Source: Candidatus Woesearchaeota archaeon
GTDB lineage: Archaea > Nanobdellota > Nanobdellia > Woesearchaeales > UBA525
Length of the DNA stretch: 64,000 nt
Assembly: GCA_027371725.1 (NCBI GenBank)
Contig: DAHXMN010000001.1
Coordinates: 400-64,399, forward strand
Reading direction: 5' to 3'
Part shown: piece by piece, positions 683 to 36,060 of the stretch
Layout: every line of letters begins with the position of its first letter
Numbering within the stretch: the first letter of the stretch is position 1
Position numbers and translations under genes: made by a program
Notes under the pieces: generated by a model
Seen by the model: the letters and a program-made list of their open reading frames with translations, nothing else
The model's database searches: none
What the model was told of the DNA's origin: nothing

Positions 683-783
683 AGCCCCGTGGTGTAGCGG
701 TCAATCATTCCAGCCTTTGGCGGCGGCGACCTTCCTCGCCCCGAAGAAAGCTGGGGACCTCGGTTCGAATCCGAGCGGGGCTA
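683..783 (+). tRNA. tRNA-Gln(TTG) with a canonical 28-nt intron (721..748) after anticodon-loop position 37
   Basis: Acceptor AGCCCCG pairs with CGGGGCT and the discriminator is A. Anticodon stem CCAGC/GCTGG with loop CT-TTG-G[intron]A. T-arm CTCGG-TTCGAAT-CCGAG. It is near-identical in its arms to the second tRNA-Gln at 8655. Confidence 0.8.
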
Positions 784-8654: not shown

Positions 8655-8727
8655 AGCCCCGTAGTGTAGCGGCCAATCATTCAGCCCTCTGGAGGCTGAG
8701 ACCTCGGTTCGAATCCGGGCGGGGCTA
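8655..8727 (+). tRNA. tRNA-Gln(CTG), intron-less; the target of the integrated element
   Basis: Acceptor AGCCCCG/CGGGGCT plus A. Anticodon stem CAGCC/GGCTG with loop CT-CTG-GA. T-arm CTCGG-TTCGAAT-CCGGG. Confidence 0.8.
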
Positions 8728-8731
8728 TTAT
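8715..8731. repeat. attL: 17-bp core CCGGGCGGGGCTATTAT overlapping the tRNA-Gln(CTG) 3' end
   Basis: An identical 17-mer recurs at 30614..30630, and a 14/17 degenerate copy at 36044..36060. Confidence 0.8.
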
Positions 8732-8904
8732 TGTTTTTTCCATCTAGAGGACTCAACCGCGCCAGTATCGTATATTCCAGTATATACTTCCTCTCTGTTC
8801 TTCAGAGCTGCGAGGCGTTTCTCGAGAAGTTCGAGGACTTGGGCGATTGTCTCGCAGCGATATTCGCGCAGCAACCGTTCTTTCTCTTGTTCGAGGAGAT
8901 CCAT
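8728..8904 (-). CDS. small integrase-downstream ORF (58 aa) whose stop codon lies inside the att core/tRNA 3' end
   Basis: MDLLEQEKERLLREYRCETIAQVLELLEKRLAALKN... A paralogue (MDLLEQEKERLLRKYGCQTIQEV...) sits just past attR at 30556..30759. Confidence 0.45.
   Translation of the reverse strand: MDLLEQEKERLLREYRCETIAQVLELLEKRLAALKNREEVYTGIYDTGAVESSRWKKQ
8732..8740 (+). terminator. oligo-T tract (TGTTTTTTC) immediately after the tRNA; an archaeal-type terminator
   Basis: T6 run 3' of the tRNA discriminator. Confidence 0.4.
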
Positions 8905-8909
8905 GCCTC

Positions 8910-20651: not shown

Positions 20652-21563
20652 TTATTTCCAGTGCTTTTTGATATAGGCTGTTGCTTCTTTCGTGTTAAGT
20701 TGCTGAGTGGAATTGCCCGTACGTATGAAGAAGTGGGTGGTATCTTTGTTCTCGACATACACTGGTTCGGACGCTTTTTTGACTTGTACTGATGCGACTT
20801 TCTTCCCGTCATAATCTTCAAATGATGTCGAGATAAGCTGTGCATGCTCTTTACCAATATAGTTGCTGACGATTTCCCCTATTTTTAGCTGGAAACCATC
20901 CTCGTTCTGCTTTTTCAAGAGAGAGATGTCCTTTTCCAGTCCCAAGATATTCTTGTCATCATCTATCCCGATTATTAGTCTTCCACCGTCAGCATTCATG
21001 AACCCGGCGATGGTCTTCGCAATGGAGACAATCAAATCCTTGTTCGGTTTGTTTTGTTTATAGTCCCATTCTATAGACGATTTGAATTCGACTGTCTCAT
21101 CCTCGCGTAATGCTTCGAGGCCGGTTTTCTTCTCTCGAATCATTTCTCCTGCGAGTTTTGATGCTTCATTCATCTTTTGTTCCAGAAGAAGCATGAAATT
21201 CTCAGATGTTCTGTACTCCTCGATGAGTAGCTGTAACTCACTCAGGCCAGCTATGGAGTATTCCTCCGCAATCTTCTTGACCTCATTCATGTCCTTAAGG
21301 ATGAGCATATCGCCCGTCTCAGCGACCGCAATTGAGGTAATTAACCAGAGATCCGCGTCAGAAAAACTGTCTGTATTCAGCAAAGGATAGCGTTTGATTT
21401 CTTTTCGTTTCAGTCTCTTCACAAATGCAAGAGACATGCAAAGCATGAAAATGTGCTTTGCTTTCATATTCTGGAAGATGAATCCTTGCTCAAGGTCGTC
21501 GTATATCTTACGAGCGTCCCTGGTTATGTTCAGGTTCCTTCCAAAAAGTTCTCTTAGTTCCAA
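20652..21563 (-). CDS. AlbA_2 (Schlafen-like) domain protein with a DndE-like N-terminal region
   Basis: The C-terminal half (...ADGGRLIIGIDDDKN...FFIRTGNSTQ) is an AlbA_2 core. The N-terminal half (ITRDARKIYDDL...HIFMLCMSL) resembles, from memory, the DndE pattern (TGLxPNLLCRIGFCxSL). Overlaps the SMC-like gene. Confidence 0.5.
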   Translation of the reverse strand: MELRELFGRNLNITRDARKIYDDLEQGFIFQNMKAKHIFMLCMSLAFVKRLKRKEIKRYPLLNTDSFSDADLWLITSIAVAETGDMLILKDMNEVKKIAEEYSIAGLSELQLLIEEYRTSENFMLLLEQKMNEASKLAGEMIREKKTGLEALREDETVEFKSSIEWDYKQNKPNKDLIVSIAKTIAGFMNADGGRLIIGIDDDKNILGLEKDISLLKKQNEDGFQLKIGEIVSNYIGKEHAQLISTSFEDYDGKKVASVQVKKASEPVYVENKDTTHFFIRTGNSTQQLNTKEATAYIKKHWK

Positions 21564-23545
21564 CTCCGCACCTCAGTCACACCATGGCTCATCACGAAAC
21601 GAGATTCCTGAGCTATACGCTTAGAAAGCAAGTCTCTGATTGTGGCAGTATATTCCTGATCCTTCATCAGAAGGACAACCTGTGTTCCTTTGAGATAGTC
21701 TGGCAACTTCCGCGCCACATTCTCTCTTTGTTCATTATCTATGTTTGCTAGGGGCGTGTCGATGAATACTGGGAACTTGAATCCGGAGACCTCGCTCAAA
21801 GCAGCAATGAATGACAACAATAGGAGCTGTTTCGGACCACTTGCGAGATTGTGCATCCAGTTTGTTCCTTTGCCGTCGGTAAGTCTGAGGTCATAATCAT
21901 GATTGATTGTGAACTCAGTATATTTCTCTTTGTCCCAATGGAGTGTTTTGAAGTATTCCCATGTCTTCTCTTGCACTTGTTCTCTGACTTCCTGTAGAAT
22001 CTCTACCTCAATTTTATTCAGTGCATTTGATGCGCGATCAATAAACTCAGCGGTGACCTTCTTTCTTTCTCCGCCTTTCTTCTTCACACCTTCTTGATTG
22101 AGACTTTGTCGTAGTTGACTCAGTTGTCCAGTTCGTAGATTTATGGCGGCAGTCAATCTCGAGACGGAAGCTATTTGAGACTCTCTGTTTGTCATAAGAG
22201 ACTCGCGTTGATTTGTCTGTTGAATTATGTCGTCTTCTTTAGTGTCCTTAAGATTCTTTGATATTTCTTGAAGATCTTTATCGTGCTTTTTATTAAGTTC
22301 CACTAGTTTTTCGAGTTTCTTGTTCAGAGTGGCTATCTCGTTGAGTGATTGAGGGATTTCGCGCTCTAGAATATCGGTGATTCTGAATTTACCTTCTGAA
22401 AGCGTGGCCTTGAATTCATTGAAATTATTCTCTCTAATCTTTTCTTTTAAGAGAGTCACACATTCTTGGTCGTGAGTAGTGTTGAGCGTCCTCCCGCAGA
22501 CGCATTTCTTTTGTCGCAACAGTTCTTCAAGATATTTGTTGTCGATATTTGGCTGGAACTTATCCCTCTCTAATTCAGCATTTATTAGATTGATAAAGTT
22601 CTGCAACGCACCAGATGCGATGGCCAGAGGAGCGGATGATATGGCAATCGTTCTCAACTGTTTCTTGATTTGATCTATTTCTTGGTTATTGGAAGCAATC
22701 TTTTCACGGATATCGCGTTCTTGTCTCGCCCATTCTCGTATGAGTGGGATGTTATAGTCAGAGAGGAACTTCTCGATTCTGTCAATCTCCTCCTTTGCTT
22801 TGGCGATTTCTCCTTTTCGAGTTTCAATAGCTTCCGTATTTCTCGCTATATACTCCTCCGCCTCTTCAATCTCATGGTTCAATTTCGCCATTCCTGCATC
22901 GTATTCGTCGTCTTTATCGGAGGTCCATATCTGATCTCGGACTTTCTGGAGATGCTCTATCGCCAGCTTGACCTGTTTGATTTGAGAGGTTCTTTCGATT
23001 GCTTGGCGGATGTTCTCGTTGTTATTGAATGAGAAGTGCTTTTCGAGCTTCTCACCTTCAAACATGAAAAAGAGGTGGATTTCCCTCGGCAATATGCTGT
23101 TTATTACATTAGTAAAATTATACTCGGGAACGGGTCTACAGTCGTTCTTTTCCCATTCCATTATTGAGCCGGTCGGCTCTTTTAAGATGTGCATCTTGTT
23201 ATTGAGCTTCTGGTACATTGCATCCCGTTTAATCACATAAATGGGCAAATCCGTTTCATCGTCGTTCAAGGTGATTTCAACATAGACGCTATCAATCTCC
23301 TTCTCCTTCATATCGTGTTGTCTGGCGACAGTAAATGCGGGCAAAGTGTGGTCATGACCTGAACTGGTCTCCTCACCATACAAACACCAAGCAATAGCTG
23401 AGAGGAAAGTGGTCTTACCAACGTCAGATTTAGCTTCAATCACAGAAAACTTGTTTTTTGCCTCTTTCTTGAACGTTACAACTATTGGCTTCTCCGGATT
23501 GCTGAACGGACGGAAGTTCTTGAGTTTGATTTCAGAGATCCACAT
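21554..23545 (-). CDS. DndD/SbcC/SMC-like coiled-coil ATPase
   Basis: 663 aa. N-terminal Walker A KSDVGKTTFLSAIAWCLYGE, a long coiled-coil middle, and a C-terminal ABC-type signature/Walker B region ...FPVFIDTPLANID. Confidence 0.7.
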   Translation of the reverse strand: MWISEIKLKNFRPFSNPEKPIVVTFKKEAKNKFSVIEAKSDVGKTTFLSAIAWCLYGEETSSGHDHTLPAFTVARQHDMKEKEIDSVYVEITLNDDETDLPIYVIKRDAMYQKLNNKMHILKEPTGSIMEWEKNDCRPVPEYNFTNVINSILPREIHLFFMFEGEKLEKHFSFNNNENIRQAIERTSQIKQVKLAIEHLQKVRDQIWTSDKDDEYDAGMAKLNHEIEEAEEYIARNTEAIETRKGEIAKAKEEIDRIEKFLSDYNIPLIREWARQERDIREKIASNNQEIDQIKKQLRTIAISSAPLAIASGALQNFINLINAELERDKFQPNIDNKYLEELLRQKKCVCGRTLNTTHDQECVTLLKEKIRENNFNEFKATLSEGKFRITDILEREIPQSLNEIATLNKKLEKLVELNKKHDKDLQEISKNLKDTKEDDIIQQTNQRESLMTNRESQIASVSRLTAAINLRTGQLSQLRQSLNQEGVKKKGGERKKVTAEFIDRASNALNKIEVEILQEVREQVQEKTWEYFKTLHWDKEKYTEFTINHDYDLRLTDGKGTNWMHNLASGPKQLLLLSFIAALSEVSGFKFPVFIDTPLANIDNEQRENVARKLPDYLKGTQVVLLMKDQEYTATIRDLLSKRIAQESRFVMSHGVTEVRSWN

Positions 23546-23732
23546 CTTTGTGCTCCTTCTGGCTGTATCCGTCCGCCCACTGTTTGTAGGAGTCGGTGTA
23601 TCTTCCTTTGGCCGCCGAGAGGTTCTTTAATTCATTCTCAAGAACATCGAGCAGAAACGATTTCAAATGCTCGCTTTCGTCTAATTCGGAGATTTTCCTT
23701 GTGATTATCTTATTCAGTTCTGATCGTCTCAT
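23532..23732 (-). CDS. small helical protein (66 aa) embedded in the operon
   Basis: Its start overlaps the helicase stop (ATGA at 23729-23732) and its 3' end overlaps the SMC start. Confidence 0.45.
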   Translation of the reverse strand: MRRSELNKIITRKISELDESEHLKSFLLDVLENELKNLSAAKGRYTDSYKQWADGYSQKEHKDVDL

Positions 23733-25873
23733 TGTGGTACGCTCAACAGGGCTTGATATTTAGTCAGATTATTCTTTACGGTCAAGGGGTTCCTTGCTGA
23801 CTGCAGGAACTCGTCAACCCTCAATAACTCCCGCCTTAACGCTGAACGCTCTGACTCCGATATTTTTAAAGGTATTCTTTCCCAAGGGAAAACCAAGACG
23901 TCATGTATAATCGAGAACTCTTTTCCCGGCGAGCGTCTCAGTATTCTCCCTCTTCTTTGAATAAACTCTACCGGATTCCCGCTACTCGCCAAAATAATTG
24001 CTCTTTCAATTCCTGGGACGTCGATACCTTCATCTAGGACCTTCATAGCAATCACTGCTTGATATTTGTCCTCCTGGAACAACCTTATGATTTCTTGCCT
24101 ATATTCAAGGCTTTCTTCATGAGTTATCTGATGAGCCCTAATTTTCTTGTCGTGCAGTATCTCCTTGACCCGTTCTATCTGTTTATCGGAACAATAGATT
24201 AGTGTTCGTTTAATATCTGGTATTGAAGAAAGGATTTTCTCAAAAGCAGCCCATTTTGCCTCAGCATTAACGAGTATTCTTGACCGCTCAAGAATCATCA
24301 TGAATATTTTATCGTCGACTTTTCCCTTGTTGGCGTGTATTGCTCGTGCTATCCGAGTTGAAAGCGACTCATATTTTTCTCTTTCTTCATCAGTCAATAT
24401 AGCAATTTCCGCATAATATTCGTATTCGGTCAGAAACTCAGGTATGGCCTGTTTCATGCTGAATTCAAAACATATCCCTTCAAAGTAGTCGAGTAGTTCC
24501 TGTGTCCCTTCGGGGTCCATGTATATCTCTGGTGTGGCGCTCAGACCAAGACGACCGATAAACTCCGGAAGCATCCCTTTCCTTGTCTCAGGTGCCCACG
24601 CGTGATGTACTTCGTCGCAGACCAATAGCTTGGTCTCTTCAGTTTTATTCACGAAATCTATTAAATCCTTCGAACAGAATGAATCATATGTTGCTACAGC
24701 AAAAAGATTCTCGGCTCTTCCTAGACGAAGCTTCAGAATCCCCGTCTTCAAGTCGGCAGCCCACACGGATTTGTTCTGCATGACTGGAATTATGTTTTTG
24801 AAACCTTCCGCCTCTAGGTTTTCTATCCATTGGGAGACGAGTAGCTGTGTTGGTGCAACAATCACTACCAACGACTTAGGATATCTTTTCAGGAAGGCGT
24901 CTATGGCGCGTAGAGCAGTGAATGTCTTTCCCGTTCCAGTCGCCATCTTCAATATGCCCTTAAAATTCTTCGACCAGTTCCTGATGGCCTCTTCTTGGTA
25001 CTCCCTGAGCTCCCTTCTCGAAGGTTCTTTCTGCTCCCGTCTAAATGAGTATCTCCCTTTGTACTCGTCCTTGGCTCTCCTCAGACAGTATTCTGAGAGC
25101 GTGTTGAATTCTTCTTCGGTCTTCGGTGATCGCTGTATTAGTTGTTTTTTGAAAGCATCACTAATCGGATAAACGCGCATATTCCCTGTCAAGTCATTCC
25201 AGAGCTCTTCGAAGTCCTCAAGATCGTGTTTTAGGTGTCGCTCTTTGTCGGATTCCACCCACCCTAGGTAGACGTGGAATTTTTCGTGGTTAAATAACCA
25301 TCCAGATGCGGTCTCGTTATCTGACCCGAAAAACTCAATCATGTTTCCGGAGGAATCTTCAAGAATGCCATATTTCTGGTGTTCTATTCCTTTGTTGCCA
25401 CCAGGAACTGCTATGCGAATTTCCAGACGACCACTTCTTACCATCCATCCAAGCATCTTTAGATGATCTTTCTTTAATTCATCTTCGCTGCAATCAATTT
25501 CGGTGATGATGCTCTTTTCAGCTTCACTGATTGCTCTTGCTATTGTCTCCGCGTCGACTTCACTCAGCTTCACACTCGTAATCAGTTGCATACGACCGCC
25601 ATTCTTGATGAACTCAGCCATCCCTTTTGCTGCTACGGCCAGAGAGCTAGAAGAGAAGAACCCTGAGACGCGCTTGTAGGTTACTGCCCGGGACAAAGCA
25701 GGAATATAGAATGAGTCCAGAACGTCTTCTTTCGCAGAGTCATAGACTCCTTTGCTTTCCAAGCCTAAATCCCTGAGGCTCATGCTCGAGCTAATTGATT
25801 CGCTTTTAAAAAGGTATCTCGATAAATTCCAGTTTACGCACACGTTCAACAGCAAAATGGGCGTATTTTGCAT
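23729..25873 (-). CDS. fusion of a phospholipase-D (HKD) nuclease domain and an SF2 helicase (ResIII/DEAH-like)
   Basis: HKD motif HQKYGILED. Helicase motif I ATGTGKTF, motif II LLVCDEVHHAW, motif III SATP and motif VI QRRGRILRR. Confidence 0.75.
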   Translation of the reverse strand: MQNTPILLLNVCVNWNLSRYLFKSESISSSMSLRDLGLESKGVYDSAKEDVLDSFYIPALSRAVTYKRVSGFFSSSSLAVAAKGMAEFIKNGGRMQLITSVKLSEVDAETIARAISEAEKSIITEIDCSEDELKKDHLKMLGWMVRSGRLEIRIAVPGGNKGIEHQKYGILEDSSGNMIEFFGSDNETASGWLFNHEKFHVYLGWVESDKERHLKHDLEDFEELWNDLTGNMRVYPISDAFKKQLIQRSPKTEEEFNTLSEYCLRRAKDEYKGRYSFRREQKEPSRRELREYQEEAIRNWSKNFKGILKMATGTGKTFTALRAIDAFLKRYPKSLVVIVAPTQLLVSQWIENLEAEGFKNIIPVMQNKSVWAADLKTGILKLRLGRAENLFAVATYDSFCSKDLIDFVNKTEETKLLVCDEVHHAWAPETRKGMLPEFIGRLGLSATPEIYMDPEGTQELLDYFEGICFEFSMKQAIPEFLTEYEYYAEIAILTDEEREKYESLSTRIARAIHANKGKVDDKIFMMILERSRILVNAEAKWAAFEKILSSIPDIKRTLIYCSDKQIERVKEILHDKKIRAHQITHEESLEYRQEIIRLFQEDKYQAVIAMKVLDEGIDVPGIERAIILASSGNPVEFIQRRGRILRRSPGKEFSIIHDVLVFPWERIPLKISESERSALRRELLRVDEFLQSARNPLTVKNNLTKYQALLSVPQ

Positions 25874-26540
25874 CGAGTTCGCAACCGAGGAATTGTCTGC
25901 CTGTCTGGCGTGCCGCTACGGCTGTGCTGCCGACCCCCATGAATGGGTCTAAAACCACATCTCCGGGCTTGCTAGAGGCCTCTATGAGGCGTTTAAGCAC
26001 CGCCAGGGGTTTCTGAGTGGGGTGAACTGAGCCGCCTTCTGGGCTGCGGAGTCGTTCTGCCCCGGTCAGGATTGGGGTGATGAAGAGGTTCTTCATGGCC
26101 CCTTGGCTGGGGAAGTTGAAGGTAATCTTGTTGAGCTTGACCTTCTCGTTGACGGCGTAGACGATGTATTCGTTGGCGAAGACCCAGTTGGTCTTGCTCA
26201 GGCGGGGTGGCGGGTTGGTCTTGCTCCAAACGAGGAGGTTGCGGAAGAACCAGGCCTCCTGGAAGATGCGCATGTAGATGGGGATTTGTTCGGTGCTGCA
26301 GAACACGTAGATCTGCCCGGTCGGCTTCAGGACGCGCTTGAGCTCCTTCATGACCGGGACGGGGTCGAAGCCATAGTCCCAGTCGCCGAAGTCCTTCCGG
26401 ATATGCCGTCCATCGTAGACGAGGTTTTGTTTTCTGGAGATGTTGTAGGGTGGGTCGGTCACGACGAGATCGACGCTGTTGTCAGGCAGTTCTTTGAGAT
26501 ATTCGAGGCAATCCATGCAGGCGATGGTGTTCAGTTTCAT
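25806..26540 (-). CDS. beta-class DNA methyltransferase (N6-adenine or N4-cytosine; DPPY type)
   Basis: DLVVTDPPYNI near the N-terminus. Its 3' end overlaps the helicase start. Confidence 0.8.
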   Translation of the reverse strand: MKLNTIACMDCLEYLKELPDNSVDLVVTDPPYNISRKQNLVYDGRHIRKDFGDWDYGFDPVPVMKELKRVLKPTGQIYVFCSTEQIPIYMRIFQEAWFFRNLLVWSKTNPPPRLSKTNWVFANEYIVYAVNEKVKLNKITFNFPSQGAMKNLFITPILTGAERLRSPEGGSVHPTQKPLAVLKRLIEASSKPGDVVLDPFMGVGSTAVAARQTGRQFLGCELDAKYAHFAVERVRKLEFIEIPF

Positions 26541-26604
26541 GCCCTGTAACGGGTTGCACTTTCAGAAATTCGGGACTCGGAAAATGTACATCAAAAAAGA
26601 AGTT

Positions 26605-26736
26605 TTAGTCACGGCCCTCATTAGCACCATCTTCGAACCCGTCCTGGTAGAGCTTGTTTAGGACGGTGTCGAGCTCTTCCTTCGTCTTGGCCGTCTTGAC
26701 CGCTTTCCGATACCCCTGTAAGTACTTGTCCGCCAT
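26605..26736 (-). CDS. tiny conserved ORF (43 aa), copy 1
   Basis: MADKYLQGYRKAVKTAKTKEELDTVLNKLYQDGFEDGANEGRD. A 41/43-identical paralogue is at 33222..33353. Confidence 0.45.
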   Translation of the reverse strand: MADKYLQGYRKAVKTAKTKEELDTVLNKLYQDGFEDGANEGRD

Positions 26737-26748
26737 GTCATTCACCCC

Positions 26749-26877
26749 CTATTCTCGCAATAGATCGTCGAAATCGACGTAGTCATGCGGGTTCTCCACG
26801 TTCCGGAACTGGCGCAGCCGATCATCCCGGAAGAACCGCTTCCCTTTCATTTCCACTATTGGTAGTTGGGTTACCAT
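26749..26877 (-). CDS. tiny conserved ORF (42 aa), copy 1
   Basis: MVTQLPIVEMKGKRFFRDDRLRQFRNVENPHDYVDFDDLLRE. A paralogue with one substitution is at 33367..33495. Confidence 0.45.
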   Translation of the reverse strand: MVTQLPIVEMKGKRFFRDDRLRQFRNVENPHDYVDFDDLLRE

Positions 26878-27424
26878 AGGTTATCGCCTCCTTAGAAAGC
26901 CCGAGCCTGAACGAGGCGATTATTCTGTCTCGGAGAATGTATGACATCTGAAGCCACTGGTCAACCGCGCGCAGCGCATTTAAGCCGATCTCACCTTCTT
27001 CGTGAGTGGCGCTTCACATCCTCAAGGGCAACGGGAGGGCGCTCGATCACGACGTCGTCCGGTTCGCGTTAGCGTACACGCCATGCCTCCTCGTAGATTG
27101 TGCAGACGCGGCCGACCCATACCAACACCCAGACACAGATGTTGCGACGTTCCTTGCAGTTCATGTGGTTCAGGCGGAACTCCTGTACCGGCTCCGAGAC
27201 ATCCTCCGCGCCCTGCCGCAGACCGTGCGGCGGCTCGGCGTCAAACGTGTCGTCATCACGCAATTCACGCGCCTTTTCCATTATCACGATGAGGCGGAGA
27301 ACGCGGATATTTACGAGGAAGTGTGGCGGCGGATCGGCGAAGCTGCAAAGGAGCTCGACGTCGTTGTCGGCGTTCCGGAGGGATCAGTCCATGAGGCGTA
27401 TGCGGAACGCCTCGGAGGGTTAAG

Positions 27425-27745
27425 ATGGGACACACGGTCAGCAGCCAACGACACGTCACCGACGTCCTCCTCGAAGAGTTCAAGGCCTATGGGAGCAGCT
27501 TGCGACAGGATGAGCGCGTCATGTATGAGCGTCTTGTCAAGCAGGCGTTGAAACACGTGGGGAGCGTCACGTACACGAGCAGCACCGAAGCATGGGCGTT
27601 CGTCCTCCTCAGCATGATGCTCGAACAAGAAAAACGGATTAGCGCCTTGGAGGGACAGAATGAAAGCGTGGTTCATGGACGCGTACCGACACCAGAGCAA
27701 CCTCATCCTCTGGTTCAAGACGCCGGACGAGAACATACGACTTGA
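27425..27745 (+). CDS. hypothetical helical protein (106 aa); may be frameshift-fused to the upstream ORF 27006..27551
   Basis: Plausible K/E-rich sequence. Overlaps the PolB start. Confidence 0.35.
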   Translation: MGHTVSSQRHVTDVLLEEFKAYGSSLRQDERVMYERLVKQALKHVGSVTYTSSTEAWAFVLLSMMLEQEKRISALEGQNESVVHGRVPTPEQPHPLVQDAGREHTT

Positions 27746-29831
27746 GCGACCACTCCGCACCACCATCTACCTCGAAGCAACCCAACAAGCAGAAGAATAC
27801 CTCACTCACCAGACAATCCCGTTTCGTCGTGTCCGGCGACAGAACTATCGCAGGGAATGGCAGGACGTCTTCGAGATTGTCGTCCCTCATCTGGCCATGT
27901 TCGAGCGCTTCGTCCGATGGATCGAAGAAGGTACGAAGCACCAGGTCGCCCTCTACAACGCAGACATCACCCCGGAACAACGCTTCCTTTACGAGCACGG
28001 CCTCAGCGCCGGAACAACCGTCCTCCTCGACGGCGAGGAGTTCCACGTTCTTGACTCCAACGAAGCGGCCCCTTTCACCGTCGCACGGCTCACCGTCAGA
28101 ACTGACAAGCCCGTGGCGGCGGCAGAAGATACGCCGATACGCGGAATAGAACTAAACGAGACCCGGTTCGACGGGGAAGAACACTCGGTTCTTGAACGGT
28201 TCGCGGCGGCGTTTGTTCGTCTTGATCCGGACATCATCATCCTCGAACACGGCTACGCAGTCCTACCACACCTTGTTCGCCGCCTAGCAGCCCACAAGCT
28301 CTCAGTCGCGTTTCACCGTTGGGACGACACGCCAATCACTTACAAGGGTGGCAGGACGTTCTTCACCTACGGCAGGGTCCGTTACCAAGACTACGCCCTC
28401 GTCCTCCACGGACGGTTCCTCATTGACACGATGACGACCGTGGGAAGCACGTGCTCGCCGGATGGCATCCTCGAACTCTGCCAGCTCAGCGGGGTCCGGT
28501 TTCCGCAGGTCTGCGCCCGGAGCTTCGGAGCAGCCTTCCAAGGCGCACTCGTCAAGCAACTCCTTGCCCACCACTTCCTCGTTCCGTTCAAAGAGAAGCC
28601 CATCGACGAGCCCTTGAGCTTCATCGACCTTGTCAAAGGCGATCGAGCAGGCCAGTACCTTGATCCGGTCCTTGGCTTCCATCAGAACGTGGCAGAAATC
28701 GATTTCTCCTCGATGTATCCGTGGCTCATGTTCAACTACAACATCAGCGCTGAAGCCCTCCAATCAAAAGAAGAACCCCTCGTCGATGTACCAGGGCTTC
28801 CGCTCACGGTCTCGCACCGGCATAAAGGACTCGTCCCGCTGGCGATTAAGCCGTTCTTGGAGCGGCGTATGGCGTACAAGCGCACCCCAACCCCTGTTCA
28901 CAAGGAGCGTGCAGCTGCGCTGAAATGGGTCCTCGTGAGCAGCAACGGCTACCTGCGTTTCCGCGAGTTCAAGCTCGGCCTCCACACGAGCCATATGGCG
29001 CTCTGCGCCTACGCCCGCGAAACACTCCTCGCCTCGATGCGGCTCGCCGAAGAACAAGGATTCCGAGTCCTGCACGGCATCGTCGACAGCCTCTACCTCA
29101 CCAAACCAGGCATGACTGAGGAAGACGTCCGACGCTTCGCCAAAGACCTCGAAATCCTGACGGGCATCCCGGTCAGCATGGACGGCATCTTCAAATGGGT
29201 CGTCTTCCTCCCCAGCATCAACGACGACGACCGGGCACTCCCGGCACGGTACTACGGCGTCTTCACGGATGGCGAGATCAAAGCGCGTGGCCTTGAAGTC
29301 CGACAACTCAGCAGCGCACGCGTCGTCCAAGAATTCCAACACGAAATCCTCCAAGCCTTGAGCACCTGCTCCACCGCCGAGGAGATCAGAGAGGCGGCGC
29401 CCTTGCTCTGTCGGTTGCTTCGGCGGTTGCTCGGACGACTCGACCACGTCCCCCCGGAGTGGCTGACAATAAAGGTCTGTCTGAGCAAGACCGAGTACAA
29501 GCACAACGTCCCGCAAAAAGCCGTCGTCGAAGCCTACGCGAAACGAGGAATCCCTATCCAGCCTGGCCAATTCGTTCGCTACCTCTACCAAGAATCAGGT
29601 CCAGTCATCCCCGAGGACTACACCGGACCACCCGACGCAGACCGCTACGAAGCCCTATTGACCCGCGCCCTCTTCATCGTCCTCCAGCCCTTCGGTTTCA
29701 GCCGCGAATGGATTAGGGACCACACCCAACAAAGCCGACAGACGAGAGTCCCCGAATATGGAGAGATATTCGATAATACATTAAAGCTGCACGACCTTCC
29801 TGGTGCCTCATGTGCGGACGCTTCACCCTGA
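27660..29831 (+). CDS. family-B DNA polymerase, compact and apparently exonuclease-deficient
   Basis: Motif A EIDFSSMYPWLM (DxxSxYP), motif B-like LVSSNGYLRF, motif C HGIVDSLYL (a YGDTDS variant) and KxRG as IKARG. No recognisable ExoI DxE. Confidence 0.65.
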   Translation: MKAWFMDAYRHQSNLILWFKTPDENIRLERPLRTTIYLEATQQAEEYLTHQTIPFRRVRRQNYRREWQDVFEIVVPHLAMFERFVRWIEEGTKHQVALYNADITPEQRFLYEHGLSAGTTVLLDGEEFHVLDSNEAAPFTVARLTVRTDKPVAAAEDTPIRGIELNETRFDGEEHSVLERFAAAFVRLDPDIIILEHGYAVLPHLVRRLAAHKLSVAFHRWDDTPITYKGGRTFFTYGRVRYQDYALVLHGRFLIDTMTTVGSTCSPDGILELCQLSGVRFPQVCARSFGAAFQGALVKQLLAHHFLVPFKEKPIDEPLSFIDLVKGDRAGQYLDPVLGFHQNVAEIDFSSMYPWLMFNYNISAEALQSKEEPLVDVPGLPLTVSHRHKGLVPLAIKPFLERRMAYKRTPTPVHKERAAALKWVLVSSNGYLRFREFKLGLHTSHMALCAYARETLLASMRLAEEQGFRVLHGIVDSLYLTKPGMTEEDVRRFAKDLEILTGIPVSMDGIFKWVVFLPSINDDDRALPARYYGVFTDGEIKARGLEVRQLSSARVVQEFQHEILQALSTCSTAEEIREAAPLLCRLLRRLLGRLDHVPPEWLTIKVCLSKTEYKHNVPQKAVVEAYAKRGIPIQPGQFVRYLYQESGPVIPEDYTGPPDADRYEALLTRALFIVLQPFGFSREWIRDHTQQSRQTRVPEYGEIFDNTLKLHDLPGASCADASP

Positions 29832-30469
29832 TAACGCCGATGAACGAGCTCGTCCAACGCTTCCGAGTAGAAGCACCCAGCAAAGAATGGAAAGCACGGT
29901 ACAACGCGGCACCCACGCAGGAACTCCTCATCATCCCCCAGGATTACCCTGAGAAGATCGTGGCGGCGCGATGGGGCCTCGTTCCGCATTGGGCGAAGGA
30001 CACGAGCATCGGCTACAAAATGATCAACGCCAAAGCAGAAACCCTCGCAGAAAAACCCTCCTACAAGCCCCTCCTCGGACAAAAACGGTGCCTCGTCCTC
30101 GCCGACGGGTTCTACGAATGGAAACACGTCGGCAAGACAAAAACCCCCTTCAGAATCACCAAGCCCGACGGCAAGGCATTCGCCTTTGCCGGTCTCTACG
30201 ACGACTGGAAGCACGACGGCGAAACCCTCCGCAGCTTCACCATCATCACCACCGAACCAAACCCAATCATGAAGCCGATTCACGACCGCATGCCAGCAAT
30301 CCTCCCCGCAGAAAAGGAGCAAGAATGGCTCACAGGCGAGTCAGCCTCCGCCCTCAAACTCCTCAAGCCATTTGCAGGCAAACTCGCCCTACAGCAAGTC
30401 TCGGAGAAAGTCAACATTCCCGCAAATGACGACCCATCCGTCCTCAAAGGACCGCAACTACTCCGATAG
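29810..30469 (+). CDS. SOS-response-associated peptidase (SRAP/YedK/HMCES family)
   Basis: N-terminal MCGRF (catalytic Cys2). About 220 aa with a family-like sequence throughout (…WGLVPHW…). Confidence 0.8.
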   Translation: MCGRFTLITPMNELVQRFRVEAPSKEWKARYNAAPTQELLIIPQDYPEKIVAARWGLVPHWAKDTSIGYKMINAKAETLAEKPSYKPLLGQKRCLVLADGFYEWKHVGKTKTPFRITKPDGKAFAFAGLYDDWKHDGETLRSFTIITTEPNPIMKPIHDRMPAILPAEKEQEWLTGESASALKLLKPFAGKLALQQVSEKVNIPANDDPSVLKGPQLLR

Positions 30470-30474
30470 ATAGT

Positions 30475-30630
30475 CATTCTCCGAGGCAAGCTAACAAACA
30501 ATCGCAGACATTCTCATGGCATGAACGAGAATTTTATAAACCGCATCACACCCATTCACACTAGCACGCTGGAGGACTGGTGGAGTCCTCTCGATACCGG
30601 GAACGGCTCACCGCCGGGCGGGGCTATTAT
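30475..30630. repeat. element right-end repeat A (about 155 bp) ending in the attR 17-mer (30614..30630)
   Basis: About 75% identical to 35900..36060. Contains catgaacgagaattttataaa, atcacacccattca and gagtcctctcgatac blocks. Confidence 0.7.
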
Positions 30631-30759
30631 CACTTTTGATGATTTCAAGGGGCTCTCTAAGATTTTCAGCCTGGATTCGATCAGAATAATCACTTCTTGG
30701 ATGGTCTGACAGCCATATTTGCGCAGAAGACGCTCTTTTTCCTGTTCGAGGAGATCCAT
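30556..30759 (-). CDS. paralogue of the integrase-downstream small ORF (spans attR)
   Basis: MDLLEQEKERLLRKYGCQTIQEVIILIESRL... is homologous to 8728..8904. Confidence 0.4.
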   Translation of the reverse strand: MDLLEQEKERLLRKYGCQTIQEVIILIESRLKILESPLKSSKVIIAPPGGEPFPVSRGLHQSSSVLV

Positions 30760-30868
30760 GCACTCGAAAGCCAACGTCCCGAGCCGGTTGTAGCCGTACC
30801 TCTCGAAGACGTGCTTGGGCATCGTGATTAAATTTATATAGGCCGTTAGATTTTATGTTCTTGGGGGG

Positions 30869-33019
30869 ATGTTCATGAAAGGTGCTGTCGTATCCATTGC
30901 GTTCTGTATCGCGATCGCATTGCTTCTGTTCGCGGATTCCGCGGCGGCGCTGAATACAGTGCCGATGCGGACGGTCACGGTTCTCCCGTCGACAATGCCT
31001 ATCCTGACGCTCAACACGACCAACACGAGCATCGCTCCGCGGCCGGTCTTCTTCGCGGCGACCACGACCCTGAGCCCGGCGGCCATCACCGCGGCGCTCG
31101 AGGCGCTCAAGACCGGACCGATGGTCTACGTCGCCGGCCGGCCGGCGCAGGTGATTGACTCCTCGGCACGCGAGGCCGTCGCCACCATACGTTCGGACGA
31201 GCCGGACAGCAGCATCCCGGCCATAGGGGTCTCGCCGGACGGGCAGTATGTCTACATCGCGATCGCCTGGTCGGTGACCGCGCAGGATTCGCTCGGCCCG
31301 TACAACGAGGCGCATTGCGCGGTCGTGCGCCTCAATGCCAGCACGCAGGTGCCGATCGACCATTTCTCCTTTGACTGGATCCGGCCGGAGCACATGGCGG
31401 TCGCGCCGGACGGCAAGGTCTATCTCGGCTACCAGGAAGCGAGATATCCTGACCATGCGGGCGTGGAGATCCTCGACTTCTCGCAGAAGAAGAGATGGTA
31501 TCTCACGTACGAGCAGGCCATGATCATGAACGTCTTCGCATTCTCGCCGGACGGCGGCCACGTCTACTACGCGGGCTGGTGGAGCTCTCCTGGGATCTAC
31601 GACCTCGATTGGAGCGTGAACAATGTCCACTACTACCCCCTGCCGGGGGACGACAGCGTCTCGGCAAGCTACACGAGATCCATCGCGGTCGGCGCCGGCG
31701 GCAGGATGGTCTACGCCGTCGTGAACCGGAACAAGGGCATCTTCGCGATGAACACGGAGGACAAGAACAAGCAGGTGATTCCGACGGACTACGTCCCGGT
31801 CACGCTCGCGACGTCTCCCGACAGGAGCACGCTCTACGTCATCGGCTATTTCTACAACCAGGACAACCAGCCGGTCTACGTCATGCACAAGTACACCGGC
31901 TTGAAGGCGGTCGGCCCGTTCTACACGAGCCAGCTCGACTACTCGGTCACGGACAAAGCGATGTTCTACACGACCGATGCCATGGACTACCTCACACCGA
32001 GCGAAGGCTATCCATCGTACATGGCCGTGACCGCTGACGGGAAATACGCCTACATCACGCTCGGGAAGGGCGACGGCGTCAGCGACGGGCACGGCAGCTC
32101 GGTCATGGTGTACGACCTCGAGTACCTGCATCAGGTCTCGGAGATCCCGGTCAAGAACGCGTACATGGACGTCGCCGCCTCGCCCGCGAAGATCCTCTTC
32201 ACGCCCGAGAACGAGCTTCAGCCCGACACGAACACCCCTGCGCCGGACGACCCTCACGCGTTCCTCGTCAAGAAGACCTACCCGGCGAACGGCTCCTACG
32301 CGAGCCTCTATCAAAAGGACTTCTTCAACGTCAACGCCATCTTCACGGCCAAGCTCGACAACATGACGGTGAGCAACGCCACGTTCACGGTTGCTGAGAA
32401 GTCCGGAACGCCGGTCGCCGGCAAGGTGAGCTCGGCGCAGAACATCGTCATCTTCATGCCGACGAGCCAGCTCAAGCCGAACACGGATTACGTCGCCACT
32501 ATCACCACAGGACTCAAGTCCGTCGACGGGTACGCGCTCGCCGCGCCGCTCCATTGGACGTTCACCACGAGGGCCGGCCTCATCGGGTTCACGAACCTTT
32601 CTATCGCGACGTCGAACGTGACGCTGATCCGGCCGTCACAGCCCAGGACCTTCCCCATCATCTTCCCGAACCAGACGAACGACCAATTAGACCCGTCGAA
32701 CCAACCCAACCAGACCATCCCTCAAACGAGTAATCCGATCGTCCCGCAGCAGCGGCAAGGAACCCTGCATGGCGGGGTCGATGGCGGCTCACAGACCGAC
32801 AGCGGCACGCCGAGCAACGCGCGAAACACCTCGCCATCGAAGAACGTCACGGCGTCGGCGAACCGGATCCCTCCCGCCGGAGGGGAGACAGTCCCCGCCA
32901 CGCTCAACGAGCGGCAGGACATCAACCGCATTAATCCGCAGCCCGAACCCCCGAACGCGAGCCCCGGTTTCCTCGGTCGTATCGCAGCCCTCTTACGGTC
33001 GCTTTTCGGGATGAAATGA
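30869..33019 (+). CDS. secreted YVTN-type beta-propeller repeat protein with an Ig-like domain, a Pro/Thr/Asn/Gln-rich linker and a possible PGF-CTERM-like tail
   Basis: Signal peptide. Repeats SPDGQYVYIA, APDGKVYLGY, SPDGGHVYYAG, SPDRSTLYVIGY and TADGKYAYITLG. C-terminus ...NASPGFLGRIAALLRSLFGMK. Confidence 0.65.
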   Translation: MFMKGAVVSIAFCIAIALLLFADSAAALNTVPMRTVTVLPSTMPILTLNTTNTSIAPRPVFFAATTTLSPAAITAALEALKTGPMVYVAGRPAQVIDSSAREAVATIRSDEPDSSIPAIGVSPDGQYVYIAIAWSVTAQDSLGPYNEAHCAVVRLNASTQVPIDHFSFDWIRPEHMAVAPDGKVYLGYQEARYPDHAGVEILDFSQKKRWYLTYEQAMIMNVFAFSPDGGHVYYAGWWSSPGIYDLDWSVNNVHYYPLPGDDSVSASYTRSIAVGAGGRMVYAVVNRNKGIFAMNTEDKNKQVIPTDYVPVTLATSPDRSTLYVIGYFYNQDNQPVYVMHKYTGLKAVGPFYTSQLDYSVTDKAMFYTTDAMDYLTPSEGYPSYMAVTADGKYAYITLGKGDGVSDGHGSSVMVYDLEYLHQVSEIPVKNAYMDVAASPAKILFTPENELQPDTNTPAPDDPHAFLVKKTYPANGSYASLYQKDFFNVNAIFTAKLDNMTVSNATFTVAEKSGTPVAGKVSSAQNIVIFMPTSQLKPNTDYVATITTGLKSVDGYALAAPLHWTFTTRAGLIGFTNLSIATSNVTLIRPSQPRTFPIIFPNQTNDQLDPSNQPNQTIPQTSNPIVPQQRQGTLHGGVDGGSQTDSGTPSNARNTSPSKNVTASANRIPPAGGETVPATLNERQDINRINPQPEPPNASPGFLGRIAALLRSLFGMK

Positions 33020-33044
33020 GCGAGATCATTTCGGTGCATAAGGA

Positions 33045-33165
33045 TGTTGTTGGGGATGCTGTATGGCTGGTCGGTCACGACGAGATCGACGCCGCTATTG
33101 GACAACTCCTTGAGATACTCTAGGCAATCCCTACAGGCGATGGTGTTCAGTTCCATGCCCTGCAA
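33045..33165 (-). pseudogene. 5' remnant of a beta-class MTase (DQPY instead of DPPY), truncated at the duplication boundary
   Basis: MELNTIACRDCLEYLKELSNSGVDLVVTDQPY is homologous to the N-terminus of 25806..26540. Homology stops at about 33057. Confidence 0.6.
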
Positions 33166-33221
33166 CGGGTTGCACTTTCAGAAATCCGGGACTCGGAAAA
33201 TGTACATCAAAAAAAGAAGTT

Positions 33222-33353
33222 TTAGTCACGACCCTCATTAGCACCATCCTCGAACCCGTCCTGGTAGAGCTTGTTCAGGACGGTGTCAAGCTCCTCCTTC
33301 GTCTTGGCCGTCTTGACTGCTTTCCGATATCCCTCAAGGTATTTATCAGCCAT
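33222..33353 (-). CDS. tiny conserved ORF (43 aa), copy 2
   Basis: MADKYLEGYRKAVKTAKTKEELDTVLNKLYQDGFEDGANEGRD. Confidence 0.45.
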   Translation of the reverse strand: MADKYLEGYRKAVKTAKTKEELDTVLNKLYQDGFEDGANEGRD

Positions 33354-33366
33354 GGCGTTCACCCCC

Positions 33367-33495
33367 TTATTCTCGCAGCAGATCGTCGAAATCGACGTAG
33401 TCATGCGGATTCTCCACGTTCCGGAACTGGCGCAGCCGATCATCCCGGAAAAACCACTTTCCCTTCATCTCCACTATCGGTAGTTGGGTCACCAT
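33367..33495 (-). CDS. tiny conserved ORF (42 aa), copy 2
   Basis: MVTQLPIVEMKGKWFFRDDRLRQFRNVENPHDYVDFDDLLRE. Confidence 0.45.
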   Translation of the reverse strand: MVTQLPIVEMKGKWFFRDDRLRQFRNVENPHDYVDFDDLLRE

Positions 33496-33616
33496 AGGTT
33501 ATCGCCTCCTGAGAAAGAACAAGGACGCGGGAGAGCATTAGTGTTGCTCGGAGATTGTATGACGAAGGGTGTTTTAGGCGAAAAATTGATAAATATTAGC
33601 GTATTCTAATATTCTT

Positions 33617-33913
33617 ATGGATGAGATGTATCAGCGTCATGCCGAGCTGTGCAAGGTGTTCGCCAGCCCCACCCGACTGGAGATCGTGGATCTCTTGCGA
33701 AGCAAAGAACTCTCCGTCACGGCGCTTGTGGAAAAGACCAAGATGGGTCAGGCCAACATCTCACAGCATCTTGCGATTATGAAGTACAAAGGGATTGTGA
33801 CCTCGCGTCGGAGCGGGACGAACGTCTACTATGCGCTCGCAGATTCCCGGATTGTGGCGGCGTTCGACATCATCTGCGAGGTGCTCGCGAAGAAGCGAAT
33901 GATCGGAGCGTGA
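33617..33913 (+). CDS. ArsR/SmtB-family transcriptional regulator
   Basis: FASPTRLEIVDLL ... ANISQHLAIMKYKGIV HTH. Confidence 0.85.
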   Translation: MDEMYQRHAELCKVFASPTRLEIVDLLRSKELSVTALVEKTKMGQANISQHLAIMKYKGIVTSRRSGTNVYYALADSRIVAAFDIICEVLAKKRMIGA

Positions 33914-33918
33914 ACAGC

Positions 33919-34206
33919 ATGGAGAAAGACCAACAAATCCTCGTGTGGGTGCTCATCGGCGTCGTGGCGCTCCTCCTGCTCGGCAGCGGGACGATGATGG
34001 GCGGGTATGGCATGATGGGCTACGGCATGGGCATCGGATTCCTCTTCATGCTCCTTTTCATCGGCGTCGTCATCTGGCTCATCGTCACCCTCGTCAATGC
34101 CGCTAAGAAGGATGAGACGACCCCCTTGACTGTGCTCAAGAAGCGGTACGCCGCAGGAGAGATCTCCAAGAAGCAGTATGCGACGATGAAAAAAGAGTTG
34201 GAGTGA
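33919..34206 (+). CDS. SHOCT-domain small membrane protein
   Basis: Two TM helices followed by LKKRYAAGEISKKQYATMKKEL (SHOCT). Confidence 0.65.
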   Translation: MEKDQQILVWVLIGVVALLLLGSGTMMGGYGMMGYGMGIGFLFMLLFIGVVIWLIVTLVNAAKKDETTPLTVLKKRYAAGEISKKQYATMKKELE

Positions 34207-34209
34207 ACG

Positions 34210-34608
34210 GTGCGACTGATGAACCCTGACGAGTTCTCCTACGCGGTCGAGACAGAGAAGAGTTTCGATGACGCCGTGATCGCGGTGCTCAGATCGGTGG
34301 AACAGCGAGGATGGGCCCTCTTCCAAGTCTACGATATCAAAGAGCGCATGGCGGCCAAAGGATTCACGCACCCGCCACTGAAAATTATTGAGCTCTGCGC
34401 GGCCAAGCACGCGAACCAGCTTCTCAAACAGAACAGGCTCGTATCCCTGTGCATGCCCTGCAAGATCAACGTGCTCCAGGACGGCGCGACGGTACGCATC
34501 GTCACCCTGAAACCCGCCATGATGACGCAGATTTTCCCCGGCATCAGCTTGGAGGACGCGAAGAACATCGAGAAAGACGTTATCGAGATCGTCAACGGGG
34601 CAAGGTGA
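34210..34608 (+). CDS. DUF302-family protein
   Basis: 132 aa with a DUF302-like pattern (...LCMPCKINVLQDGATVRI...). Confidence 0.55.
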   Translation: MRLMNPDEFSYAVETEKSFDDAVIAVLRSVEQRGWALFQVYDIKERMAAKGFTHPPLKIIELCAAKHANQLLKQNRLVSLCMPCKINVLQDGATVRIVTLKPAMMTQIFPGISLEDAKNIEKDVIEIVNGAR

Positions 34609-34612
34609 ACTC

Positions 34613-34936
34613 ATGAACATCGGTATCATCCTCAACACGAACGACGCGGAAACCTGCTGGAACTGCTTCCGATTCGCCAACGAAGCCCGTGCACGCCACG
34701 ACGTGAAGGTCTTCCTCCTCGGCAAAGGGGTAGAGCTCGACAACGTCCAGGACGCGAAGTTCCCCCTCCTCCAAGCCATGATCAAGAAGTTCACGACGAA
34801 CAACGGGACGATTCTCGCCTGTGGCACCTGCCTCAAACTGCGCGACAAGCCCGGAAGCGAGATATGTCCCGTCTCAACGATGGCCGAACTCCTCCGGCTC
34901 GTCGAGGAATCAGAGCGAATCATCACTTTCGGTTAG
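34613..34936 (+). CDS. DsrE/DsrF-like (sulfur-relay/peroxiredoxin-like fold) family protein
   Basis: 107 aa with GTILACGTCLKLR. Confidence 0.55.
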   Translation: MNIGIILNTNDAETCWNCFRFANEARARHDVKVFLLGKGVELDNVQDAKFPLLQAMIKKFTTNNGTILACGTCLKLRDKPGSEICPVSTMAELLRLVEESERIITFG

Positions 34937-34996
34937 ATTGGTCCTTCTAGCAAACATTCGTGAATCTTTATAAGCGGTTGTTGCCGTCATCGGTGC

Positions 34997-35887
34997 ATGT
35001 CCCACCATTGGGGGTATGTCTACGCGCTTGGAGCGGCGTTGCTCTTTGGCGTGAGCGCGACGCTTAACAAGCTCGTGCTTGCAACGGTGCACCCGCTCAT
35101 CGTCTCCGCAATCATCTACGGTTGCGCAGGACTTGTGCTTGGCGCGGTGCGGTTCTCCCCACTCTATCCTCTCGTCGCGTCGTCGCTGCACCTGAGACAT
35201 GAGTCTGTGCGGCTTACGAGGCGTGATTGGGTGCTCATCGTCCTGATCGCCATATTTGGTGCGGTGCTCGGACCGCTCTTATTCCTCTCTGGCTTGCAGG
35301 TTGCCTCAGCTTCGAGCGCGTCCTTGCTGCTTAACGCCGAGGTTCTCTTCACCGCCTTGCTCGCGATGCTTTTCTTGCGTGAGCGTGCGCGTCCGCGTGA
35401 GTACGTCGCGCTCGTCCTGCTCTTTCTCGGTGCGGTCGTCGTCACGACGAACCTTCAGTTCGGCGGTGCGAGCATGGCGGGAAGCTTGCTCATCGTCGCT
35501 GGCACGTTCTGCTGGGCGGTCGACAACACGCTGAGCAAGAAACTGAGCATTGAGAGCGATGTGATGAAGGTCGCGGCACTCAAAGGCCTCATCGGCAGCG
35601 CCATCCTGCTCGTCCTCGCGTTCTTCCTCGGCCTCCCGCTCACGATTCCGCCGCTCGCGATCCCGTATCTGCTCTTCGTCGGCTGCTTGAGCATCGGCGC
35701 GTCCTTGCTCCTGTTCCTGTCGGCGATGCGCATCATCGGTTCGATGCGCACCGTCGCGATCTTCGCGACTTCTTCGCTTTTCGGCGTCCTCGCCGCGTTT
35801 TTCCTCCTTCACGAGACGGTCTCGTTCGTGCAACTCGGAGCGGGAGCCGTGATGATCTACGCCGTTTACTTGCTAGCCAATAAATGA
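34997..35887 (+). CDS. EamA/DMT-family transporter (10 TM)
   Basis: Duplicated EamA domains. Confidence 0.8.
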   Translation: MSHHWGYVYALGAALLFGVSATLNKLVLATVHPLIVSAIIYGCAGLVLGAVRFSPLYPLVASSLHLRHESVRLTRRDWVLIVLIAIFGAVLGPLLFLSGLQVASASSASLLLNAEVLFTALLAMLFLRERARPREYVALVLLFLGAVVVTTNLQFGGASMAGSLLIVAGTFCWAVDNTLSKKLSIESDVMKVAALKGLIGSAILLVLAFFLGLPLTIPPLAIPYLLFVGCLSIGASLLLFLSAMRIIGSMRTVAIFATSSLFGVLAAFFLLHETVSFVQLGAGAVMIYAVYLLANK

Positions 35888-35899
35888 CGGACGCTTTGT

Positions 35900-36060
35900 A
35901 AAACATTCTCCGAGACAAGCTAATGCGCTCTCGAGGACTTTCGAATAGCATGAACGAGAATTTTATAAATGGTATCACACCCATTCATACCGGCGCCGCA
36001 GGAGGAATCGTAGAGTCCTCTCGATACTCAGAACGGCTCAGCGCCGGGCGGGGTCATTCT
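35900..36060. repeat. element right-end repeat B ending in the degenerate att (CCGGGCGGGGtCATTcT, 36044..36060)
   Basis: About 75% identical to 30475..30630. Confidence 0.65.

Follow-up and report, generated by a model that had tools for sequence, protein, structure and literature searches.

PolB2 (Dpo2) is the least understood archaeal family-B DNA polymerase, and the multi-subunit mutasome proposed for it is so far a computational model only. In the system as described (Makarova 2014; Kazlauskas 2020, PMC7544198; Feng 2020/2022, PMC7390963, PMC8764526; Timinskas 2025, PMC11791011), the genes for an inactivated RadA/Rad51 homologue (iRadA), for PPB2, a small helical protein of ~85–110 amino acids (aa; arCOG07300), and for the polymerase follow one another in this order, and their products are predicted to assemble into a heteropentameric PolB2 mutasome (PMC11791011). 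The B2/G2 group of polymerases is defined by a single conserved Asp in motif C, an unconserved ExoI motif, a missing ExoIII motif and a D(K/R) motif, the last located in a loop upstream of motif A (PMC7544198), and genes of the SRAP family are "enriched to some degree" near polB2 (PMC11791011). A locus of this kind was found in a 64,000-nt stretch of contig DAHXMN010000001.1 from a Candidatus Woesearchaeota archaeon (GenBank assembly GCA_027371725.1), here called the window, to which coordinates refer unless stated otherwise. Positions 27006–30469 are read, with a probability of about 0.82, as an operon of four genes, iRadA-PPB2-PolB2-SRAP, in which the PolB2 mutasome would be encoded by the first three; an element integrated at a tRNA-Gln gene would carry this operon as cargo. 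Judged from its sequence, the locus is an ordinary case of the described translesion synthesis (TLS) mutasome operon, including the SRAP gene already known from its vicinity, and it reveals no new enzyme or system class. Two points are modestly new: SRAP is fused into the operon, and all four genes make up a discrete cassette within an element of the type IV secretion system (T4SS) type that is integrated at a tRNA gene in a DPANN-like archaeon.

The open reading frame (ORF) of the polymerase matched Pfam DNA_pol_B (2e-10) and, in the PDB, PolB of Thermococcales (4e-24), and a profile of 32 homologues reached 6.6e-42. An initial annotation, made from the sequence alone, had reported motif A, a B-like motif, KxRG and a motif C with its first Asp lost, a reading borne out by residue-level alignments. 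Motif A is intact (D348-FSSMYP), the B-like stretch is K422-WVLVSSNGY, KxRG is present as K541-A-R-G544, and motif C, H472-G-I-V-D476-S, stands opposite Y-I-D-T-D-G of the Deep Vent and 9N polymerases, with the first Asp changed to Ile and the second retained. H472, I474 and D476 are invariant among the 32 homologues. The annotation had also found the acidic residues of ExoI and ExoII unrecognisable, while allowing for a misread DTD motif or an intact exonuclease; in the profile alignment FDIET (ExoI) and NGDSFD (ExoII) of Deep Vent face non-acidic, unconserved columns, so that both motifs are lost, as is the first Asp of motif C. The fold of the exonuclease domain appears to be retained in the structural model, the full-length fold match of which covers the N-terminal and exonuclease regions. 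The D(K/R) motif is D328-R329, with D328 invariant and R329 at least 90% conserved in the family, and is separated from motif C by 146 residues, compared with 148 in PolB2 of S. islandicus (253-DK-254 and 401-IID-403; PMC11791011). The best-scoring NCBIfam model, NF004416 ("type B DNA-directed DNA polymerase", 331 bits), is a full-length one. The length of 723 aa, initially regarded as small for a PolB, is not anomalous, as the best-matching NCBIfam models for such polymerases are 665 and 717 positions long. The nearest relatives (~50% identity) are from Woesearchaeota and Nanoarchaeota. The single Asp of motif C, the unconserved ExoI and the D(K/R) motif that mark the B2/G2 group are found in this protein, which on these sequence features is assigned to PolB2, and its identity is settled by the iRadA and PPB2 genes upstream.

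These two genes were overlooked in the initial annotation, which described a unit of two genes; the adjacency of PolB and SRAP stands, and the unit comprises four genes, including a polymerase of the described B2 group (PMC7544198). The family profile of iRadA (A2) matched the ATPase cores of DMC1, RadA and Rad51 from beyond the Walker A region (E-values 6e-6 to 4e-5), and 9 of 45 family members matched Pfam Rad51 individually (best 8.7e-14). The Walker A motif GxxxxGK[ST] is absent from the iRadA sequence and from the family consensus, there is no N-terminal domain, and the homologous part comprises only ~147 aa. The 39 PPB2 homologues in alignment A3 start with a nearly invariant M-G, extended to MG(H/R)T, and an N-terminal "MGRT" arm of PPB2 has been published (PMC11791011). 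They always sit between iRadA and PolB2. In the Nitrososphaeraceae loci PPB2 is duplicated, with MGRT on one copy only, as published. PPB2 also matched phrog_30126 (unknown function) over its full length (E-value 1.2e-6), which indicates that PPB2-like proteins occur in some virus or provirus genomes.

Conservation of the operon was assessed at 80 PolB2 loci from a scan of one genome per species, the six-frame ORFs of which were searched iteratively with hidden Markov models. These loci include a close clade, 35–50% identical, from Woesearchaeota, Nanoarchaeota, Omnitrophota and Brocadia, and distant loci from Nitrososphaeraceae, Bacteroidota, Ignavibacteriota and others. Where enough flanking sequence was available, iRadA and PPB2 were located upstream on the same strand at 32 of 36 close-clade loci and at 19 of 29 distant loci. 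PPB2 and PolB2 overlap by 16–113 nt across the clade, and as long overlaps are typical of it, those of 86 nt (PPB2/PolB2) and 127 nt (iRadA tail/PPB2) at this locus are not signs of decay. The described mutasome has the same gene order and likewise a single Asp in motif C (IID, compared with IVD at this locus), a D(K/R) motif, a dead exonuclease, an MG(R/H)T arm of PPB2, an iRadA that lacks Walker A, a putative clamp-binding motif in the polymerase and an enrichment of SRAP nearby. The locus differs in belonging to a DPANN-centred subclade that is ~28–31% identical to the Nitrososphaeraceae and bacterial loci of the same scan, in a PPB2 that starts with MGHT and not MGRT, and in that SRAP is joined to the operon by an overlap and an element integrated at a tRNA gene has the entire unit as its cargo. 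At several Nitrososphaeraceae/Thermoproteota loci and one Woesearchaeota locus (L046, L062, L066, L069, L070) a TFB gene of opposite orientation was seen 0.2–1.9 kb downstream of PolB2; it may encode a damage-response regulator tied to the operon.

The last ORF, taken for SRAP in the initial annotation on account of its MCGRF start, indeed belongs to this family: it matched Pfam SRAP (PF02586; 1.3e-72, 244 bits against a cut-off of 27) with residues 1–202 of the 214-position model and, in the PDB, HMCES (6.5e-24) and YedK (1.3e-20). Its Cys2, Asn73, Glu103 (FYEW) and His158 (IHDRMP) align with the matching stretches of HMCES and of further SRAP proteins of solved structure, PDB entry 2f20 among them, and we take the counterparts of Glu103 and His158 to be the catalytic Glu and His of YedK and HMCES. 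The protein is accordingly similar to E. coli YedK and human HMCES in fold family, in Cys2 following Met and in the conserved Glu and His, and differs from them in that its gene is the final one in an operon for a TLS polymerase. It is predicted to crosslink to single-stranded DNA (ssDNA) at its abasic sites via a thiazolidine. SRAP lies within 2.5 kb of PolB2 at 10 of 27 evaluable close-clade loci, mostly in convergent orientation, and at none of 22 evaluable distant loci. At the present locus the two genes are on the same strand and overlap at the PolB2 stop by 22 nt (previously given as 20 bp), the tightest arrangement among the loci scanned.

Table 1 Coordinates of the four-gene cassette, of the element and of associated features in the window.
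Feature	Position	Strand	Basis or remarks
iRadA (inactivated RadA/Rad51 homologue, GTG start)	27006–27551	+	Homologous part ends near 27446
PPB2 (small partner protein, N-terminus MGHT)	27425–27745	+	Alignment A3, gene order
PolB2 (B2-group family-B polymerase, 723 aa)	27660–29831	+	Sequence, motifs, AlphaFold model
SRAP (YedK/HMCES family, 219 aa, start MCGRF)	29810–30469	+	Pfam SRAP, PDB matches
3.5-kb cassette with four genes	26946–30474	+	Bounded by homology breaks between two related element backbones
tRNA-Gln gene	8655–8727		
attL core	8715–8731	+	Last 13 nt of tRNA-Gln and following 4 nt; 17-mer CCGGGCGGGGCTATTAT
attR core	30614–30630	+	Exact repeat of tRNA-Gln 3' end, 145 nt downstream of SRAP stop
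Tyrosine integrase, tRNA-adjacent	8910–10253	-	phrog_1 integrase, 1.5e-12; Pfam Phage_integrase weak, 1.3e-4
C5 methylase	18839–20533		Flanks Pbe block
Dnd-associated/SLFN_AlbA_2 protein	20652–21563	-	
PbeC	21554–23545	-	2e-150
PbeA	23729–25873	-	3e-218
N6/N4 methylase	25806–26540		Flanks Pbe block
13-mer TCTCGGAGAATGT	8939, 10310, 18805, 26575, 26928, 30399, 30474(-), 33191, 33546, 35903(-)		In related element L083: 5951, 9910, 22050

The operon is situated between two copies of a 17-mer from the 3' end of the tRNA-Gln gene, CCGGGCGGGGCTATTAT, repeated exactly at 8715 and 30614, where only 0.02 matches are expected even with up to two mismatches. Past the integrase, which is at the tRNA-proximal end, the gene order is a TFB paralogue, a VirB4/TraC-like ATPase, T4SS-pilin genes, the C5 methylase, the Pbe module, the N6/N4 methylase, the PolB2 operon and attR. 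These attachment (att) repeats and the adjacent integrase support the conclusion that the operon is element-borne, as the initial annotation had it. A second, decayed element follows in tandem beyond attR (30631–36058). It contains the 5' remnant of a methylase gene (32722–33165, minus strand), a backbone repeat of 510 nt and a repeat of the right end, the att core of which, at ~36044, is degenerate. Both elements have in common a small att-adjoining ORF (30700–30761 and 8845–8906), the 510-nt backbone segment (26435–26945 and 33051–33563, 86–91% identical) and a right end of ~155 nt (30475–30628 and 35904–36058). The 510-nt direct repeats were considered as att sites or a target duplication and rejected, being backbone segments (methylase 5' end and two small ORFs) of two related elements, with the att core in the 17-nt tRNA 3' end. 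The backbone homology breaks off 60 nt ahead of the iRadA start and resumes 5 nt past the SRAP stop, and the corresponding slot of the second element (33564–35903) is occupied by a different cassette, with genes for ArsR helix-turn-helix, SHOCT, DUF302, DsrE and EamA proteins. From the tight homology breaks and the other cassette in the same slot it follows that the four genes, SRAP included, behave as one exchangeable cassette of 3.5 kb.

It could be argued that the operon is not cargo but normal chromosomal sequence that happens to lie where decayed elements accumulate at a tRNA-linked hotspot, and that SRAP is adjacent only incidentally. The overall GC content of the cassette (58.3%) is indeed near that of the flanks (59–62%), which in this respect upholds the host-like composition reported initially, and differs from that of the methylase/Pbe block (44.7%). 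The nearest PolB2 relatives come from the same groups, Woesearchaeota and Nanoarchaeota, as the best named relatives (55–62% identity) of the deoxyhypusine synthase that is encoded in the window together with a TFB, both of them marks of an archaeal host; element genes of this type do not accompany PolB2 at other loci, and the degenerate att-like site at ~36044 points to repeated rearrangement. This explanation is nevertheless unlikely, given the two exact tRNA 3'-end copies around the operon with an integrase at the tRNA-proximal end, the homology breaks that closely bracket the four genes and the different cassette in the neighbour's slot. The linkage of SRAP to PolB2 at the related loci is also far above chance for a single-copy gene. 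At third codon positions GC (GC3) is 0.71 in PolB2 and 0.70 in SRAP, well below the 0.90–0.92 of core host genes, and 0.48 in PbeA; the cassette is therefore compositionally intermediate and only superficially host-like. Nor is all of the element AT-rich, although its bulk had been described so: the methylase/Pbe block is, and the T4SS part has 57.5% GC.

Several findings do weigh against a mutasome operon carried as cargo by a mobile element. The NF004416 score lies below the curated equivalog cut-off of 516 bits, as expected for a divergent subclade, and the closest PolB2 homologue is only 50% identical. SRAP is tied to only about one third of the related loci and usually lies on the opposite strand (7 opposite versus 2 same strand within 1 kb downstream), so a functional partnership of PolB2 and SRAP is not obligatory. 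The GC3 of the cassette fits neither the host core nor the AT-rich backbone, and the second decayed element beyond attR implies a complex history at tRNA-Gln. Finally, no homologue of the integrase or T4SS genes of this element is present within 8 kb at any of the other 80 PolB2 loci, and a scan of IMG/VR returned no PolB2 homologue, which makes the mobile context peculiar to this locus. The IMG/VR result also led us to reject a viral origin of the polymerase.

The loss of the first Asp of DxD and of the ExoI/II residues, together with a divergent motif B, in which Asn is replaced by Val426 and N429 stands where the family has Tyr, might suggest an inactivated PolB relic or a structural, non-catalytic paralogue, which was the original view of the family in 2008; a relic was also among the options left by the initial annotation. 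The residues D348, D476, K422, K541 and R543 are, however, invariant in 32 homologues of ~45–50% identity, which indicates selection on the active site, and the protein retains all 67 family-invariant columns of the alignment. Its AlphaFold model, computed from the family alignment, is complete and confident (predicted local distance difference test 89.2, predicted template-modelling (TM) score 0.84), with predicted disorder only in the last 23 residues, and was superposed by Foldseek on the 9N and KOD polymerases with a TM-score of 0.72 over ~800 columns. S. islandicus Dpo2, with the same state of motif C (IID), has been reported as a TLS extender that is active, inducible by damage and needed for targeted mutagenesis (PMC8764526; PMC11791011). 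As the invariant residues are kept, the model is complete and Dpo2 is active, an inactive relic is very unlikely and this reading is rejected. The C-terminus contains a PCNA-interacting protein (PIP)-like box, Q694-TRVPE-Y700, which fits Qxx[LIVM]xx[FYW] and occurs in 26 of 32 family members, being missing mainly from bacterial ones. It aligns with the extreme C-terminal QTGLTAWL of Thermococcales PolB, presumably the PCNA-binding box of those enzymes.

Approximately half of the closest PolB2 homologues (Woesearchaeota/Nanoarchaeota; P0003–P0119) bear a C-terminal VRR-NUC domain (PF08774) of ~130 aa, at columns ~790–940 of alignment A1. The PolB2 of this locus has no such domain and differs in this from many of its sister proteins. 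The 2025 paper on the PolB2 mutasome (PMC11791011) does not mention VRR, and a full-text literature search for a B-family polymerase with VRR-NUC in archaea found nothing; such a fusion of a TLS polymerase with a structure-specific nuclease may be undescribed.

The clade of protein-primed PolBs and of the polymerases of pipolins (piPolBs) is marked by TPR1/TPR2 insertions, and casposon PolBs by association with Cas1 and terminal inverted repeats. The exonuclease active site is kept in piPolBs and in protein-primed PolBs, whereas it is dead in the present enzyme. The polymerase gene sits inside an integrated element, and piPolBs likewise are family-B polymerases on integrated elements without the first Asp of motif C (PMC7544198), yet the idea that it encodes the replication enzyme of the element, whether pipolin-like and primer-independent as proposed initially, casposon-type or protein-primed, is highly improbable and was dismissed on sequence and fold affinity and gene context: the best matches are RNA-primed-type archaeal PolBs at full length, with a contiguous 9N/KOD alignment that points to the B1-3-like type, no phi29- or piPolB-type match is among the 57 PDB sequence matches or the best 50 fold matches listed, the gene belongs to the conserved operon with PolB2-specific partners, no Cas1 is among the Pfam-annotated genes within 10 kb, and the homologues, none of which is in IMG/VR, are in their great majority chromosomal and have no element genes around them.

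The translesion-like pair that the initial annotation listed among its options is the one favoured by the family features and partners of the polymerase. Following the published model, an exonuclease-dead PolB2, one inactive RadA paralogue and a PPB2 trimer would form one complex, expected to extend primers beyond lesions and mismatches in an error-prone form of damage tolerance and probably tethered to PCNA via the PIP-like box of the polymerase. SRAP would most likely be co-transcribed and translationally coupled with PolB2, as suggested by the overlap of the two genes. The whole cassette would represent a self-contained damage-tolerance module, riding at the distal end of an element of ~21.9 kb in the tRNA-Gln gene of a DPANN-like (Woesearchaeota-related) archaeon.

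A bolder version of this scheme, which we regard as speculative and rather doubtful, is that of a mobile damage-tolerance cassette in which SRAP would be a functional fourth part of the mutasome, marking or shielding abasic sites in ssDNA at or past which the PCNA-tethered PolB2-iRadA-PPB2 would act, and which would spread among DPANN archaea by cassette exchange between T4SS-type integrative elements. If this were true, the four-gene cassette would be an archaeal family-B analogue of bacterial mucAB and rumAB borne on plasmids or integrative and conjugative elements (ICEs). The mobile TLS cassettes of bacteria, mucAB, rumAB and impCAB, are found on plasmids and ICEs and are taken here together with Pol V. 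Like the present locus, they combine an error-prone polymerase, small accessory subunits and a RecA-family partner as conjugative or integrative cargo; here the polymerase is of family B and not Y, a dedicated inactive RecA-family paralogue is encoded in the operon, and the host is an archaeon. With four overlapping genes in 3.5 kb and its own upstream region, the locus is a compact natural construct for asking whether SRAP and PolB2 share a pathway, and it suggests that, in DPANN archaea with small genomes, an integrative element may move such a module as its cargo.

There are precedents for a PolB2 on mobile or accessory replicons, in view of relatives on plasmids: full-length PolB2-like proteins (25–28% identity) are encoded by 104 PLSDB plasmids, nearly all of them haloarchaeal. 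The haloarchaeal plasmid pHOS100 (NZ_CP019069.1) shares the three-gene arrangement on an extrachromosomal replicon, with a PPB2 that starts with MGRM and an iRadA-like ORF that matches profile A2 (hhalign probability 93%), both genes being annotated only as "hypothetical protein". Apart from the low identity, these operons differ in residing on large, non-mobilisable replicons, and pHOS100 has no annotated SRAP beside the polymerase.

As regards the remainder of the element, the segment 11827–18651 (minus strand) encodes, besides the TFB paralogue, a VirB4/TraC/HerA-like ATPase of 982 aa, a membrane protein of 674 aa and a TrbC/T4SS pilin. A related element of GCA_964603995.1 (L083) has a VirB4-like ATPase and a TFB that share 90%-identity clusters with those of this element. 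The transfer genes could belong to a conjugative element or to a Ced/Ted-like DNA-transfer system. The AT-rich block at 20652–25873 (minus strand) is a Pbe-type DNA-phosphorothioation-dependent defence module, and no dnd modification genes were seen within the window. In the second element the place where one would expect an integrase, flanked by the small ORF near the att site and by the methylase remnant, is taken by a gene for a 716-aa secreted or surface protein (30869–33019, plus strand; 62% GC). This protein has a Big_5 Ig-like domain, and its N-terminal half is beta-propeller-like.

The 13-mer TCTCGGAGAATGT has ten matches with up to two mismatches, compared with 2.4 expected, all of them within the region of the element. 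An inverted pair coincides exactly with the two borders of the cassette, and copies also lie ~50–150 nt upstream of genes of the backbone, such as those of the integrase, the pilin operon and small ORFs, both here and in the related element. Since it precedes several backbone genes too, a recombination site is unlikely and the 13-mer is probably an element-specific promoter or operator motif. Lastly, a 101-nt tRNA at 683–783 (plus strand) was detected by Rfam (48.6 bits) and not called by ARAGORN, and is presumably an archaeal tRNA with an intron; only 2 nt distinguish its 3' end (771–787) from the att core of tRNA-Gln.

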